DNA of 64,000 nt from Alphaproteobacteria bacterium (GCA_048463395.1 DBFWPL010000025.1:9545-73544), one strand, 5' to 3'; positions 48,117-53,872 are shown, counted from the stretch's first letter. Notes: generated by a model from the sequence alone, not told the origin. Translations and numbers: made by a program.

Positions 48117-48947
48117 TTATTGGTATGTACCGTCTTGGTTACTAAATGAGGAACCTACGGGGGCCTGACTACAGTCAATGGTGGTAACTGACTTAAGTTT
48201 TCCGCTGTCTAACACCAACATAATACCGGCATTGTATCCTAAACTTTTGCTGTCTGCATGTGCGACGTTATCAGCGGAACCTTGTAAGTTTATTCCCATA
48301 AAAGTGTCTTTGAAGGTGGTATTTGATGTCGGGCAGTCAGTGCTATCCGGACTAATGACAACAACAGCATATCCCACATTCAGCATAGCGGTATAAAAAT
48401 CAACGGCGGAGTTGGGATCGGATGGTTTTAAATTTTGTTGACAATATTTACCGCCAATAATAAGAACGCTCTTGTTCTCGTTTAAATTCCAAGTTCCGGA
48501 GCCAAGGAGACCTTGGTCTCGGGCGGCATAGCTGAAGATGTCCTGAAGGCCAAAACCGTTGTCTTTCTTTTCACATTTGTTTTGGGCTTCAAGAAAAGCG
48601 GTTGGAATCATTCCGCTGTTGGCACATTTTCTACACCAGGTAGGAGACATGGCGGCACAAGCCTCAAGAGTTACGGACCAAGGGATTTTGTCTGGACGAA
48701 GAGTTCCTGTCGGGCAGGTTTCCGGTTGTGGGTCAATAGGATCAGGACACCAATAAGCACCGGAGTCAAACGGACAAATCAAACTTTTTCCAGGAGTGGT
48801 TGGGCATAGTTTGGCGTTATAAATAAAACCAAGACTTTCACAAGTCGGTTGAGAACCGCAAGTTTGAGCTGATGCGGTTGAGTTTGGCAAGGAGAAAACA
48901 AGTGCTAAAAGGCCCAGCTTTGCATATTTTTTAAAGTTCTCATTCAT
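48117..48947 (-). CDS. Secreted cysteine-rich protein, function unknown
   Basis: A signal peptide is followed by many Cys residues arranged as C..C/CP motifs. The gene is adjacent to, and co-oriented with, two other Cys-rich secreted proteins. Confidence 0.55.
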   Translation of the reverse strand: MNENFKKYAKLGLLALVFSLPNSTASAQTCGSQPTCESLGFIYNAKLCPTTPGKSLICPFDSGAYWCPDPIDPQPETCPTGTLRPDKIPWSVTLEACAAMSPTWCRKCANSGMIPTAFLEAQNKCEKKDNGFGLQDIFSYAARDQGLLGSGTWNLNENKSVLIIGGKYCQQNLKPSDPNSAVDFYTAMLNVGYAVVVISPDSTDCPTSNTTFKDTFMGINLQGSADNVAHADSKSLGYNAGIMLVLDSGKLKSVTTIDCSQAPVGSSFSNQDGTYQ

Positions 48948-48966: not shown

Positions 48967-49767
48967 TTATTTAGGCATAATTGGGATAAGTTTACATTTC
49001 CAAGAACAATTATCCAGATTAACATATCCGGAGGCACATCCGGTGATGTAATATTTGGCAGAACAGTTCTCGAAAGAACAGGTATATCCGTTCGGACAAA
49101 TTGAGTAAATTCCGCGGTTTGGGCAGGATTTGCATTTGTTGTATTTTGTAACCCCGTTTTCAGTGCAGCTTTCGGCACCGGCTTCGTGTCCCAAGTCGCA
49201 AACGATGAATTCCGACGCACAAGAGCATCCGCTTTGGGCGGCATTTATGGTATACGGCGAGGAGCAAGTTTGGCAAATTGATTTAGGGTAATAGTAAGTT
49301 TCTAAGTTTCGGTTGTCTCTGCAAAAATTATTAGAGGCTCGGTTTTCAGGCGTGATGTATTCGTCGTTTCCGGAACATTCGGTTAATGTGTTTGTGGCAT
49401 CGGAACAACGGCAAGAATAGTGGGTGCCGTTTTTGTCGGAACAGCTTTCCGTTGTGGCTAATTTGCCGCAAACGGAAAGTTGGTTTCCTTCTTCAACGCT
49501 GTAATAGTCGGAGTTGCACTTGCAGGATTTAAAATATCCGGTGTCATAAGGACAAATTTCATCCGGAAGCATATTTGCTTCACAAGTGGTTAAGGTATAT
49601 CCTGCGTCAGTACATAGAGCTTTATTGTTTAGTTTGAATGAAACGTCTGAATCTCCCACACTAAAGTAACCAAATGAATTGACATCGGTAATACAGCGGA
49701 CTGCCGCATTGCTTGAGGAGAAACCAAGCAGGATAGCGAAACTAAAAAAGAATAAAAATTTAGTCAT
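48967..49767 (-). CDS. Secreted cysteine-rich protein, function unknown
   Basis: A signal peptide begins at the internal Met (MTKFLFFFSFAILLGFSSSNA). The tool ORF extends to 49833. The sequence carries more than 30 Cys residues with CxC, CxxC and GY motifs. Confidence 0.55.
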   Translation of the reverse strand: MTKFLFFFSFAILLGFSSSNAAVRCITDVNSFGYFSVGDSDVSFKLNNKALCTDAGYTLTTCEANMLPDEICPYDTGYFKSCKCNSDYYSVEEGNQLSVCGKLATTESCSDKNGTHYSCRCSDATNTLTECSGNDEYITPENRASNNFCRDNRNLETYYYPKSICQTCSSPYTINAAQSGCSCASEFIVCDLGHEAGAESCTENGVTKYNKCKSCPNRGIYSICPNGYTCSFENCSAKYYITGCASGYVNLDNCSWKCKLIPIMPK

Positions 49768-49802: not shown

Positions 49803-52754
49803 TTAATGGAAAGACAGCTTGCACAGAACGCACTTGCCGCCATTAGCGTCGTAAGAATGAAGAGGTGTGATAGTTTTTGGATTTGTGCCATCCTGGTTTA
49901 ACCATTTGTCCCTTACTCTTTCACACGCATCTTCCGCACTTTCATTTGGCTGAGCCAAAACACATTGAGCGGCTGGCCAGAGCGACGGAGGTGTGCTTTT
50001 GTCATCTTGAAATTCGGAGTCGTAGTCTGCAACAATTTTATCTTGCATTCCGTAAGAACATTCAGCGTTATTTTCTCCTAAGTCTTCGTTCCAATACGGA
50101 TCTATACAGTTATTTATGACGCAAGTGTAACAGTCAAGTTTTCCGCCACTTTGTTGATAAAGAGCATCGTCTTTTTCACAAACAACAGAGATATCATTTT
50201 TACAATACTCTTCGTAGTCCGGAGTAGGATTTGCACAGAGAGACAAATAGTCATTTACGTTTGGATCGCTTTTGTCCAGTTTACCGAATAATTTACAAGT
50301 GGCATTGTCGTAGTCTGTACTATTGCAAGTGACCATATGTTCGGCATTTTGTAATGTACAAGACGGTATTCCGCTTAAAGGTGTTAAATAGGCATTTTCT
50401 TTCATTTGTTTACAAAGCTGTTGTTGACCTTCATAGATTAAGTATCCGTTGTAAAAGGCATCCGTACTTTTGTTGTGGTCTAAAGTTTGAAGACGATAAA
50501 ACAGGTTACTTTTACCTTTGCCTAACATGTCACTGATAGTTACTGAAAAAGTTGGTATAGTAGTTGATGTCATATAATAAGACCCATTGTTAAAATGCAG
50601 TTCAGAGAATAAAGGGGACGATTCAACATTATAGCCATAAATTTTTACATTTTCATGGTTACTACTTCCATTGGCAATAGCTCCGTATTCAAATTCTTCT
50701 TTATTGGCATTAGGATCAAAGTGGAACGCAACAGCTCTTTCAGGGCTACCGATAAATGATGTGTCTGCAAGATCATTTATGCTAGATGTGCATTGATAAC
50801 TTTTGGTTATAATGCCGTTATGCATAGACCAATAAGCAGTGATTTTTTGATTGGAAATACCGAATACAATACTGGTTCCTGATGCAATATATATATCATC
50901 AGCGATGAGTTTGCTAGACTTTAAGCCAAGTGTTCCTGCCAGATATATTTTCGGAGCAATGACTGTGGAATTACTCAAAGCAACGTCTCTGAGAACAGCT
51001 TTGTCGGTCGCGGTTAATTCAATGTTGCTAAAACTGGCTCCGCGTGAATCTTCAGCTCCCGAGCTTGTGACGTATGGAGATGAAAAAGATTTGACCTTGA
51101 GCTTATAAACTTGATTGCTTTCTTTCAATGTCTCTCCAGGTTCCAGACTGACGTTGCTTGGGGTACTTCCGGAATGATAAGCGGGAAGAAAGATACTGAC
51201 ATGATCAACAGAGTTGGTATAATCGAGATCCATGGAGGAGCAATCAAGGTCTTTTTCTATTGATACAAATGTTCCTCCGTTCATGAAGTATTTCTCTCGG
51301 TCTAGCTGTAAGGCTTCAAATTTTAATTCATCACATGTACCCACACTGTATCTTTGTGTGGAGTATGTTCCTGTAAATGAAGAACAAGGAGGTGTAATGC
51401 AATAGTTTGCACATATGGCAGTATCAGGGTTTGTGTAACATCTTTCGAATTTGTCTGTTGTTTTATCATAACGTCCGGACAATGAATTTCCATTGTTGCA
51501 GCATGTCTGGTAGGTGTCATCTGCACAATAGCTGCCTGCTTCGTCGGAGGCTAGCCTATATCCGTCATCACAAATTTTACAATCGGTTGTTGAACCGCTG
51601 ACACATTCTTTGCAGTTAGAGACTGTGCATTGGGTATTGGAACAATTTGAATAGCAGGTTTGTCCGTAGTAAGCGGTCTTGGTGCAGGTTTGTCCGTCCG
51701 GTTGAGCGTCGACATATCCACCATCACTGCAAGTCGGCTGCTTGCAATCTTTTTGGCAGGTTCTTCCATAGTAAGAAACAGCCGTACATTTGTTGTTTGT
51801 CGGTACGGTATCGACGTAACCACCTTTACTGCAAGTTGGCTGATAGCAATCTTTGTAACAAGTGCGTCCGGAGTAAGAGACTGAAGAACACACTTGATTG
51901 GTTGGTACGCCGGATTTGTATCCGGCATCTTCACAGGTTGGTTGTCCCTCGTCTTTGTAACAAGTTCTGCCATAAGTATTAGTTGTTACGGTATCGCAAG
52001 TATGGTTACTTGGGCAAGCAGTTAGGAAACCGCTTTCTTCACAAGTCGGTTGTTTGCAGTTGGTGTAGCAGGTTTTGTTGCAGTAAGGTGCAGAATCGCA
52101 TTTATTGTTTGCCGGAACGGAAGAAATGTATCCACCGTCTTCGCAGCTTTTGGTGGAAATGTCCTGATAACAGGTCTGGTTGGCAAAAGAGATTGACGTG
52201 CCGGTTTGGCAAGCCGTTAAGGAGTCAGCGTATCCGCCTTCGGTACAAGTTTTGTCCCGACACTTATAGCAAGTGGTTCCGGACTCGTTTTGGTAAGAAT
52301 CTACCAGAGTTTGAGAAGTGTTTTGGCAAGTGGTTGTGGAATATCCTTCATCACAAGAGTTATCTGCTTCTCGACATTTAAAATAGGATTTGTTGTACGG
52401 GCAAAGATCGCTTTCGTCCTTTACGTACCCGTCCGGACAGGTATTAACGTACCCTTCGTCTTTGCATTGAGCATTGCTATCCAAATCCATGGAGTTGAAG
52501 TTTAAGATACCGCAACTTCCGCCGCCGTTGACGGAACAAACAGAGGCAAGTTTTACGGCATTTTTTGCGTTAAAAAGGGGTATAGGCTTTAGCGTGCTGG
52601 GTGTGTGTATGTGTGTGTGTACTAAACTGTCCGGTAATGCCAAAGATAAATTGTAAGTCAGGTTGATTTCTGTTGCCTGTATATCGTTTGAAAGTAGCAG
52701 ACACGTCGAAATACATAACAAATACTTAGTATTAATCATAGGGCACTCCCACAC
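49803..52754 (-). CDS. Large secreted cysteine-rich tandem-repeat protein (983 aa)
   Basis: A signal peptide is followed by tandem modules of about 33 aa of the form C..GGY(V/I)D..P.....C......Y.G(R/Q)TC(Y/Q)..C.QPTC, repeated five or more times. Periodic repeats of about 100 nt are visible at the DNA level between roughly 51700 and 52250. The tool start is a GTG at 52754, and an in-frame ATG (MINTKY) lies at 52739. Confidence 0.6.
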   Translation of the reverse strand: MWECPMINTKYLLCISTCLLLSNDIQATEINLTYNLSLALPDSLVHTHIHTPSTLKPIPLFNAKNAVKLASVCSVNGGGSCGILNFNSMDLDSNAQCKDEGYVNTCPDGYVKDESDLCPYNKSYFKCREADNSCDEGYSTTTCQNTSQTLVDSYQNESGTTCYKCRDKTCTEGGYADSLTACQTGTSISFANQTCYQDISTKSCEDGGYISSVPANNKCDSAPYCNKTCYTNCKQPTCEESGFLTACPSNHTCDTVTTNTYGRTCYKDEGQPTCEDAGYKSGVPTNQVCSSVSYSGRTCYKDCYQPTCSKGGYVDTVPTNNKCTAVSYYGRTCQKDCKQPTCSDGGYVDAQPDGQTCTKTAYYGQTCYSNCSNTQCTVSNCKECVSGSTTDCKICDDGYRLASDEAGSYCADDTYQTCCNNGNSLSGRYDKTTDKFERCYTNPDTAICANYCITPPCSSFTGTYSTQRYSVGTCDELKFEALQLDREKYFMNGGTFVSIEKDLDCSSMDLDYTNSVDHVSIFLPAYHSGSTPSNVSLEPGETLKESNQVYKLKVKSFSSPYVTSSGAEDSRGASFSNIELTATDKAVLRDVALSNSTVIAPKIYLAGTLGLKSSKLIADDIYIASGTSIVFGISNQKITAYWSMHNGIITKSYQCTSSINDLADTSFIGSPERAVAFHFDPNANKEEFEYGAIANGSSNHENVKIYGYNVESSPLFSELHFNNGSYYMTSTTIPTFSVTISDMLGKGKSNLFYRLQTLDHNKSTDAFYNGYLIYEGQQQLCKQMKENAYLTPLSGIPSCTLQNAEHMVTCNSTDYDNATCKLFGKLDKSDPNVNDYLSLCANPTPDYEEYCKNDISVVCEKDDALYQQSGGKLDCYTCVINNCIDPYWNEDLGENNAECSYGMQDKIVADYDSEFQDDKSTPPSLWPAAQCVLAQPNESAEDACERVRDKWLNQDGTNPKTITPLHSYDANGGKCVLCKLSFH
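52601..52620. repeat. In-frame (GT)4-AT-(GT)5 dinucleotide repeat inside the N-terminal coding region of the 983-aa protein
   Basis: The sequence gtgtgtgtatgtgtgtgtgt is ten dinucleotide units. On the coding strand it encodes VHTHIHT. Confidence 0.8.
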
Positions 52755-52793
52755 AGTTATAAAAACTAAAGCCTATACTCTTCATACTAATCG

Positions 52794-52806
52794 TTTTTTT
52801 TTTTTT
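52794..52806. repeat. Homopolymeric T13 (A13 on the coding strand) tract in the promoter region of the 983-aa Cys-rich protein gene
   Basis: Thirteen consecutive T residues lie about 40 nt upstream of the start codon of the minus-strand gene. Confidence 0.8.
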
Positions 52807-52924
52807 GCAACAAAAAAGTGCATCTGGCCGCAGATTTAAAGGTGTTTTTGCAGGTCGGAGGTGTCCGGGTTTATAAAAAAACTTCTCAAAAGAGAAGGTT
52901 AAAGGAGAAAAGTGATGATAAAAA

Positions 52925-53872
52925 TTATTTATAAGAGGCTCGTTTGATACGGTCGTTGATGGCTAGTCCCAAGCCGTGTTCCGGAATAGGGGATATGGCA
53001 ATGCTTTGGCAGTTTTCTTGTTTGTCAGCCAAACGCAGAAAAGCAAAGAGGTTTCCGGCAGCTTCGCAAAGGTCTCCTTTGGGACTAAGGTTTAAGTCAG
53101 CATCCTTTACATTACCGAATCCGATAAAAAACTCACCCGGTTGGCGGGTTACGGCATTTATTCGCAGCGGTCGTCCCGGAGCATAGTGTTTGAGAAGCTG
53201 CCCGGGGGCACTTGGTTTGTCCGGTGTACCGTCGGAAAGTAAAACTTCTTCATTGAGAAAACGGCTTAAATCTTCTTTGGAAGTTCCTCCGGCTCGCAAA
53301 ATGATCACCTGTTTTCCGGTAACGTCGATAATTGTTGATTCGACACCGACTTTACAAGCTCCGCCGTCTAAAATCATGTTTACTTTTTCGCCGAGGCTCT
53401 CAAATACGTGTTCAGCCGTGGTCGGGCTGATGGATTTGAACTTGTTGGCTGATGGGGCGACGATCGGAACACCGCTTTGGCGAATGAGTTCCAAAGCAAC
53501 CGGATGTGCCGGCATTCGGACGGCAATGTTCGGTAAGCCGGAACAGGCCAAATCAATAGCGGCATTGTTGTCTTTACGTTTGAGAATCATTGTGAGAGGT
53601 CCCGGCCAGAATTTTTTTGCCAAAGCCATGACCCTTTCATCCGTTTGGGCATAAGTTGCTAAAAAGTCCGTTTCGGCAATGTGGGAAATCAGCGGGTCAA
53701 AAAAAGGGCGTTGTTTAGCCTCAAAAATTGAGGCAACCGCCTGTGCGTCATAAACATTGGCTCCGAGGCCGTAAACCGTTTCCGTCGGCATGGCGACAAG
53801 GCCGCCGTTTTTTATCGTTTCAGCCGCTTTGTTCAGATTTTCGGGGGTCGGTTGGTAAATGTTACTCATCAA
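52925..53872 (-). CDS. tsaC: L-threonylcarbamoyladenylate synthase (Sua5/TsaC family, long form)
   Basis: A YrdC-like N-terminal domain (GGLVAMPTETVYGLG) is followed by a Sua5 C-terminal domain. Length is 315 aa. Confidence 0.85.
   Translation of the reverse strand: MMSNIYQPTPENLNKAAETIKNGGLVAMPTETVYGLGANVYDAQAVASIFEAKQRPFFDPLISHIAETDFLATYAQTDERVMALAKKFWPGPLTMILKRKDNNAAIDLACSGLPNIAVRMPAHPVALELIRQSGVPIVAPSANKFKSISPTTAEHVFESLGEKVNMILDGGACKVGVESTIIDVTGKQVIILRAGGTSKEDLSRFLNEEVLLSDGTPDKPSAPGQLLKHYAPGRPLRINAVTRQPGEFFIGFGNVKDADLNLSPKGDLCEAAGNLFAFLRLADKQENCQSIAISPIPEHGLGLAINDRIKRASYK

Follow-up and report, generated by a model that had tools for sequence, protein, structure and literature searches.

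A conserved poly(A) tract as a candidate slipped-strand promoter element in a family of predicted secreted Cys-rich proteins from uncultured gut Alphaproteobacteria

Two simple-sequence repeats lie at the 5' end of a gene for a predicted secreted, cysteine-rich (Cys-rich) repeat protein in a 64,000-nt stretch of an Alphaproteobacteria bacterium genome (GCA_048463395.1 DBFWPL010000025.1:9545-73544; the window, whose coordinates are used throughout), and the question raised by this locus is whether either repeat switches the gene by slippage. To our knowledge, most descriptions of simple-sequence-repeat (SSR) contingency loci come from a small number of pathogens with reduced genomes, and such loci are rarely described in Alphaproteobacteria or uncultured gut commensals. 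The original prediction held that both repeats are switches, a T13 homopolymer in the promoter region and a (GT)4-AT-(GT)5 tract in the coding sequence. Both are present, and the interpretation placed on them is partly supported. The homopolymer is a plausible candidate for a promoter element, shared across the family, that switches or tunes expression by slipped-strand mutation, a reading to which we give about even chances. The dinucleotide tract appears to belong to a conserved coding motif that lies in the folded leader of the mRNA.

The poly(A) tract, its putative promoter cassette and the gene family

The T13 run on the plus strand at 52794-52806 is A13 on the coding (minus) strand and is the longest homopolymer in the window, where the runner-up measures 9. 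Composition proves nothing alone, because Markov models trained on the window do not reject chance: a run of at least 13 arises in 14-36% of simulations. The argument that such a tract is unlikely to be accidental in a small AT-rich genome is weak, since the window has a G+C content of 41% and is not markedly AT-rich, and AT-richness makes A/T runs likelier by chance. Conservation is decisive: the same uninterrupted tract occupies the same position in 23 homologous cassettes with the core CACTTTTTTGTTGC-A12/13-NNN(N)-TTAGTAT, which stand ahead of paralogous and orthologous genes in metagenome-assembled genomes (MAGs). One cassette is on the window's own scaffold (L001), four came from a scan of genome collections, two from a pattern scan of metagenomes (20 matches, of which 18 were chance and 2 real) and 16 from further exact-protein look-ups; a scan of viral contigs with the cassette pattern gave no matches. 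An upstream cassette of ~100 bp is common to all family members, and the core is the best-conserved part of the region. The A tract is a perfect homopolymer in 23/23 cassettes while adjacent bases of the untranslated region (UTR) diverge, and every A/T run of at least 10 nt within 264 kb of family loci is a cassette tract. The elements of the cassette and its gene are as follows.

52794..52806, minus strand: A13 homopolymer, candidate slipped-strand switch, which takes up the greater part of the spacer separating the -35-like and -10-like hexamers
52807..52820, minus strand: invariant block CACTTTTTTGTTGC, unchanged across an alignment of 14 distinct cassettes
52808-52813 and 52805-52810, minus strand: -35-like hexamers TTGTTG and TTGCAA, respectively, in the region of the CACTTTTTTGTTGC block, the second running into the tract
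52784..52790, minus strand: TTAGTAT, invariant in all cassettes, which holds the -10-like hexamer TAGTAT (52784-52789)
49803..52739, minus strand: gene for a predicted secreted Cys-rich repeat protein, with a 978-aa product and a predicted Sec-type signal peptide, MINTKYLLCISTCLLLSNDIQA
52875..52897, minus strand: terminator-like hairpin and T-run, 3' of the neighboring upstream Sua5/TsaC-family gene (52925..53872, minus strand)

The A tract would be the promoter spacer, an assignment that rests on consensus matching and homology. TAGTAT matches the -10 consensus at T1, A2 and T6, and from its position the transcription start site (TSS) is predicted at ~52776-52778. The tract ends 54 nt upstream of ATG 52739; it had been placed correctly upstream of the start codon, at a distance of ~40 nt that proved too short. 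The hairpin after the Sua5/TsaC-family gene implies that the Cys-rich gene has a promoter of its own. A divergent paralogue, P0008 (L039), carries the homologous promoter TTGTAA-17-TATCAT, to whose -35 hexamer the CACTTTTTTGTTGC block aligns and to whose TATCAT the TTAGTAT element aligns; by this homology the promoter of the main family would read TTGCAA-15/16-TAGTAT. The A-rich spacer of L039, AAATAAATAAAAAATAAAT, is 2 nt longer and interrupted, and is therefore presumably non-mutable. P0008 itself (N-terminus MKNIYVGLL, L039 9860-10000) has an Lcl_C domain and adjoins a prophage-like block with capsid, portal and terminase genes.

Two other promoter readings were set aside. TTTATA-17-TATGAT, called by a promoter scan, overlaps the start codon and is not conserved, and a sigma-54 reading of GCAC-N7-TTGCA was rejected by inspection (GG missing, spacing off by 2). 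Within the region of the CACTTTTTTGTTGC block, TTG is the center of an inverted repeat with the arms T6G and CA6. The promoter stretch T6GTTGCA6 (52802-52817) is in addition 75% complementary to the coding sequence TTTTTAACGCAAAAAA at 52561-52576 (codons LFNAKN); the coding arm of this inverted repeat, I2, is not conserved in paralogues, and the match is probably coincidence.

Most paralogues have a second conserved motif, TGTAACAGAAAT..(T/A)TTAAA, at 25-45 nt upstream of the core (L038 3665-3700). This motif reads TGTTACA in L042, is vestigial in the window (CTGCAAAAACACCTTTAAAT; 52822-52860, minus strand), and may be a regulator-binding site. Together with the weakness of the core hexamers, this motif would suit an arrangement in which the promoter lies further upstream, near TGTAACAGAAAT...TTAAA, and the tract is transcribed, acting in the 5'UTR through reiterative transcription or as a site for a protein or small RNA (sRNA). 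We consider this improbable: inspection of the alignment gave no acceptable -35/-10 pair at 16-18 nt around the upstream motif, the window copy largely lacks that motif, and helix P1 of the mRNA leader described below opens at the very base that TAGTAT predicts as the TSS, which yields a coherent 5'-terminal stem.

The open reading frame (ORF) on the minus strand extends over 49803..52754, beginning with GTG at 52754, and both repeats are at its 5' end. We place the start codon at ATG 52739 rather than at this GTG, because GGGAG precedes the ATG and every homologue opens MINTKYLL; the predicted product is then 978 aa long, not 983 aa as first proposed. This protein has no match in Pfam, NCBIfam or PDB sequences. 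An AlphaFold 2 model is confident only at residues ~90-365, a region folded in the model as a series of Cys-rich beta-hairpin repeats, and a Foldseek search with the model returned nothing at E <= 0.001. Homologues are confined to MAGs of uncultured gut Alphaproteobacteria, among them a water-deer caecum MAG (RGIG8504) and an 'uncultured Azospirillum' MAG. The family is multi-copy, with at least 3-4 copies per MAG, near-identical N-termini and divergent C-termini, some of which carry the adhesin-associated domain Lcl_C (PF07603). Its genes are dispersed at unrelated chromosomal sites, and the proteins have no lipobox. The positional orthologue in a related species, with Sua5 upstream and two ~270-aa genes downstream, is 44% identical. 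A protein search with the N-terminal 124 aa for short frameshifted fragments gave a single match, which was uninformative.

Directly 3' of the Cys-rich gene are two genes of ~266-276 aa (48967-49767 and 48117-48947, minus strand) with no Pfam or NCBIfam match. The same pair trails orthologues at the Sua5 locus (L029-31) and, in a different chromosomal setting, at the Trp-repressor locus (L038, L043, L045-47), which suggests that the Cys-rich gene and the two downstream genes may form a three-gene module.

Length variation of the poly(A) tract

All tract lengths were taken from consensus metagenome assemblies, and strains were compared at orthologous and paralogous loci. GTTGC and TTAGTAT are 16 nt apart in 19/23 cassettes and 17 nt apart in the remaining four (L022, L043, L044 and L045), and in no cassette is the distance 15 or 18 nt. 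The tract takes the forms A12+T, A13 and A14, the first two of which differ by a spacing-preserving substitution at tract position 13. All four length variants are +1, unlike the contraction that library or in vitro stutter is expected to favor, and one of them, L044, is on a contig of ~23x coverage.

Poly(A) length is not invariant among related strains. At the Trp-repressor locus, represented by five ~99%-identical strains, the tract is A12 in L038, L046 and L047 and A13 in L043 and L045. Forty-one parsimony-informative sites at this locus, two of which lie just 20 nt upstream of the tract, group L038 with L045 against L043 with L046; the tract itself groups the strains differently, that is, it is homoplasic. 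Only 4 substitutions in 8.7 kb separate L038 from L045, and still the two have tracts of unequal length. Only two of the 76 homopolymers of at least 5 nt at the locus vary: the A12/13 tract and an A7/A8 run ~280 nt upstream of it within one and the same intergenic region (alignment column 2757 in L038/L043/L045/L046), which is congruent with the single-nucleotide polymorphism (SNP) phylogeny. The pattern of tract lengths requires at least two independent events at the Trp-repressor locus, and at least four independent +1 events would be needed overall, which indicates that the tract probably undergoes recurrent slippage. The A13 of the window and the A12-A14 of the other 22 cassettes, all uninterrupted, exceed the mutability cut-off for poly-A/T tracts, which is at least 11 in the PhasomeIt criteria (PMC5953494). 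The claim that the promoter homopolymer is a contingency switch therefore stands as a candidate, by virtue of this cut-off, the invariant flanking hexamers and the one-base differences between strains.

Several points weigh against it. The promoter hexamers are weak matches, and a stricter consensus scan did not call the promoter. One spacing accounts for 19/23 copies, and three other strain sets are unchanged (Sua5 locus x3, flagellar locus x4). Classical multigene contingency families show far more length scatter than is seen here. The consensus assemblies may contain homopolymer miscalls or an arbitrary pick among mixed alleles. A relative carries mutS, so mismatch repair is probably present, which would lower slippage rates. 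The collections hold no strain-level relative of the window's own gene, whose protein cluster has a single member.

The main rival reading is a fixed-length structural element. The A tract would then be a rigid or curved A:T spacer, or part of the T6G...CA6 palindrome as a protein-binding site, kept by purifying selection, with +1 alleles that are neutral, slightly deleterious or assembly errors, and no adaptive switching. We regard this as a substantial possibility, short of probable. The identical spacing of 83% of copies across species and paralogues fits it, as do the three invariant strain sets and the A<->T substitution at tract position 13, which preserves spacing. The flanking blocks are equally invariant, so that conservation does not single out mutability, and the interrupted A-rich spacer of L039 suggests that A-richness, not perfection, may matter. 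There is also a precedent in the A5/A6 promoter tract of Neisseria meningitidis nspA, a fixed polymorphism that affects expression with no detectable phase variation (PMC6389960). A fixed spacer does not readily account for length changes that recur on a near-identical background, with at least two events at one locus and at least four overall, or for a tract that is perfect in 23/23 copies while neighboring UTR bases diverge. Nor does it predict that only +1 states occur, since from general experience random error or polymerase chain reaction stutter would be expected to leave a different pattern.

Several metagenome contigs end at the cassette or in the 5' coding region: L002 has the gene from nt 9, L040 starts from GCACTTTTTTG and L041 starts inside the A tract, and contigs L007 and L008 start inside the gene. 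Such breaks are as expected if a multi-copy cassette, possibly with heterogeneity of the tract, disrupts assemblies.

The coding dinucleotide tract and the mRNA leader

The second repeat, (GT)4-AT-(GT)5 at 52601-52620 on the plus strand, is (AC)5-AT-(AC)4 on the minus strand, where it is in frame and encodes VHTHIHT, as had been predicted. It is the longest dinucleotide run in the window. In Markov models a perfect (XY)5 is expected by chance (P ~0.2-0.3) and a 20-nt imperfect period-2 tract has P 0.003-0.03. An (AT)5 run at 50887-50896, inside the same Cys-rich gene, equals the GT runs in length, which indicates that five-unit dinucleotide runs arise by chance here.

Its in-frame position near the 5' end, where a one-unit change would frameshift the gene, and the rarity of a 20-nt period-2 tract are the points in favor of an intragenic slipped-strand switch that turns the gene off. 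We think this very unlikely. With an interruption between 5 and 4 units, the tract falls below the dinucleotide cut-offs of 6-8 units, and even in Neisseria the dinucleotide tracts were invariant (PMC5953494). The whole family conserves the peptide motif HT.(I/L)HTP, with ELKPI after it. Orthologues read TTA CAC ACA CAA ATA CAC ACA CCC, from which the window differs by one CAA to CAC change that lengthens the first run, and the differences among paralogues in this region are substitutions or whole-codon indels. The region is open and in frame in 23/23 copies, with no frameshift. Two apparent OFF alleles were artefacts: the N-terminally short P0014 is a gene-call artefact with an intact full ORF, and the truncated P0039 is cut by a 100-N scaffold gap. 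The codons are themselves constrained. Given the codon usage of the window (CAC 48%, ACA 28%, ATA 15%) the AC codon string has p~0.001, and HTP is written CAC ACA CCN, with CAC ACA for His-Thr before Pro in 13/14 distinct copies. This constraint at the nucleotide level is accounted for by the position of the AC tract in a conserved RNA leader, and the rarity of the period-2 tract by a conserved coding and RNA motif. On the comparative evidence, then, the AC tract is most probably a conserved coding motif in a folded mRNA leader, not a switch.

The leader is ~200 nt long (52580-52778, minus strand), and the same region occurs in L003-L006, L022, L027, L029, L032, L035, L038, L040, L042 and L044. 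Its parts are the following.

52763..52778, minus strand: 5' arm of helix P1, GUAUAGGCUUUAGUUU, where the transcript is predicted to begin
52580..52595, minus strand: 3' arm of helix P1, in coding sequence (codons T-L-K-P-I, ~49-54), immediately 3' of the AC tract
52741..52756, minus strand: 5' strand of helix P2, AACUGUGUGGGAGUGCCC, in the 5'UTR, including the Shine-Dalgarno (SD) sequence GGGAG at 52746-52750
52625..52645, minus strand: 3' strand of helix P2, the anti-SD partner, at coding nt +95..+115 (codons ~32-39)
52601..52620, minus strand: (AC)5-AT-(AC)4, a single-stranded CA-rich segment between P2 and P1, with unpaired probability 0.72-0.97 in 14/14 leaders

A perfect 13-nt inverted repeat, with 173 nt between its arms, joins the 5'UTR at 52766-52778 to 52580-52592, and RNAalifold on 14 distinct family sequences independently predicts a 16-bp P1 there. 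In this helix 97.8% of cells are paired, as compared to 20-50% in slid controls, and the family shows one clade-wide AU to GC compensatory change and many one-sided changes to G.U. In P2 the partner sequence changes between paralogues with complementarity kept: one clade has AACUGU:ACAGUU where another has UUACUA:UGGUAA. The SD is paired with a probability of 0.72-1.00 in 14/14 distinct leaders, and minimum free energy z-scores of the leader are -4.3 and -4.1. The modeled leader thus shows covariation in support of its helices and is predicted to sequester the SD. It may serve in protection of the mRNA 5' end, in translational gating, or as a standby or trans-factor site. No Rfam family matches it, the best score being 20.7 bits on the opposite strand against a gathering score of 47.2; the leader appears to be previously undescribed and is a candidate new cis-regulatory RNA.

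The same perfect inverted repeat, with arms at 52766-52778 and 52580-52592, could in principle be a pair of recombination sites, between which inversion would turn round the segment with the ribosome-binding site, start codon and signal-peptide region. Inversion switches at such repeats within genes for surface proteins are known, the Ureaplasma mba locus being one (PMC3047005). Here we give inversion scarcely any credence. Transitions in the arms of paralogues keep G.U pairs on the sense RNA only, so that pairing in P1 drops from 97.8% on the sense strand to 80.4% on the antisense strand, which points to RNA rather than DNA recombination sites. The inverted orientation occurs in 0/23 copies, among them the two that came from the promoter-pattern scan and not from a protein match, and no recombinase gene is adjacent at the window locus.

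Proposed mechanism, significance and comparison with known systems

Taken together, the candidate slipped-strand reading of the poly(A) spacer would work as follows. The A tract would be the spacer of a conserved sigma-70-type promoter cassette (-35-like TTGCAA or TTGTTG, -10-like TAGTAT) that heads every gene of the multi-copy Cys-rich family. Slippage in replication across an unbroken stretch of 12-14 A:T pairs would add or remove a base far faster than the surrounding DNA mutates, and hexamer spacing would toggle between 15 and 16 nt if the -35 element is TTGCAA, or between 18 and 19 nt if it is TTGTTG. The transcription level of each paralogue would in this way be reset heritably and independently, in a transcriptional phase or rheostat variation like that of vlp and sabA. 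The GT/AC tract would play no part in switching and would serve as a His-Thr motif and an unpaired CA-rich stretch of the leader, in which the extreme 5' end would pair with codons ~49-54 (P1) and the SD region with codons ~32-39 (P2). What is observed is where the tract lies, that it is conserved, polymorphic in length and homoplasic, that the AC tract stays in frame, and that covariation supports the helices; the promoter assignment, the transcriptional consequence of a single base, how fast and how reversibly the tract switches, and what the leader does are what we infer here.

A fuller version is more speculative, and we put it forward tentatively, with more doubt than confidence. The dispersed Cys-rich family would be a Vlp-like contingency system, set gene by gene through the poly(A) spacer switch, with most copies at a sub-optimal 15-nt spacing and few at 16; the SD-sequestering ~200-nt leader, with its CA-rich platform as a standby site or sRNA or protein target, would be a second layer of control. 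If this is true, commensals known from MAGs only would vary the set of proteins that they secrete or expose by the same logic of bet-hedging, and tract length per paralogue would be a marker that can be scored directly in metagenomic reads. The promoter tract would be a known type of contingency element in an unusual host group, and the SD-sequestering leader is a separate candidate regulatory RNA. The AC tract suggests that coding 'microsatellites' can be by-products of joint constraints on peptide and RNA structure, not switches.

Intragenic SSR frameshift switches include the CTCTT repeats of Neisseria opa and the tetranucleotide repeats of Haemophilus influenzae. Like them, the AC tract is a repeat in coding sequence close to the signal peptide, and gain or loss of one unit would shift the reading frame; unlike them, it is interrupted, below the cut-offs and part of a conserved motif, and its unit number and frame are constant in 23 copies. 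Ribosome standby sites are known, and GcvB targets C/A-rich elements. The leader resembles SD-sequestering leaders and C/A-rich enhancer or sRNA-target elements in having the SD in a long helix with an adjacent single-stranded C/A-rich stretch, and it is set apart from SD-sequestering leaders by closing helices that use coding sequence 95-160 nt into the ORF and by the lack of an Rfam match.

The promoter tracts of N. meningitidis porA and opc are G/C tracts. What these and nspA have in common with the cassette is a one-base homopolymer change in or near the promoter spacer, putative in the present case, which there alters expression of an outer-surface protein; those are single genes, whereas the cassette here is family-wide. 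For the T-tract of Helicobacter pylori sabA, lengths that vary between strains and clones and a graded, rheostat-like effect through promoter geometry are described (PMC11162790 and the work it cites). sabA is alike in having an A:T homopolymer of ~13 nt at the promoter, here putative, of an adhesin-type gene, with lengths that differ between strains. The sabA tract lies upstream of the -35 element and aligns UP-like elements, whereas the tract here lies between the putative -35 and -10 hexamers, and H. pylori lacks full mismatch repair and spans a wide range of T13-T18 or more, in contrast to the two states seen here.

In Mycoplasma hyorhinis vlp, indels in promoter poly(A) tracts set transcription ON or OFF independently for each gene (Citti & Wise 1995, as summarized in PMC10502178). 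Unlike that system, the present one belongs to a Gram-negative alphaproteobacterium, probably with mismatch repair; its genes are dispersed, not clustered, and encode Cys-rich repeat proteins without a lipobox in place of lipoproteins. It shows little length scatter (16 or 17 only), has an SD-sequestering leader in addition, and is known from sequence alone. What the two share is a multigene family of secreted or surface proteins, predicted as such here, a highly conserved 5' cassette of signal peptide and promoter, the latter putative here, and a poly(A) tract in that promoter in front of each gene.

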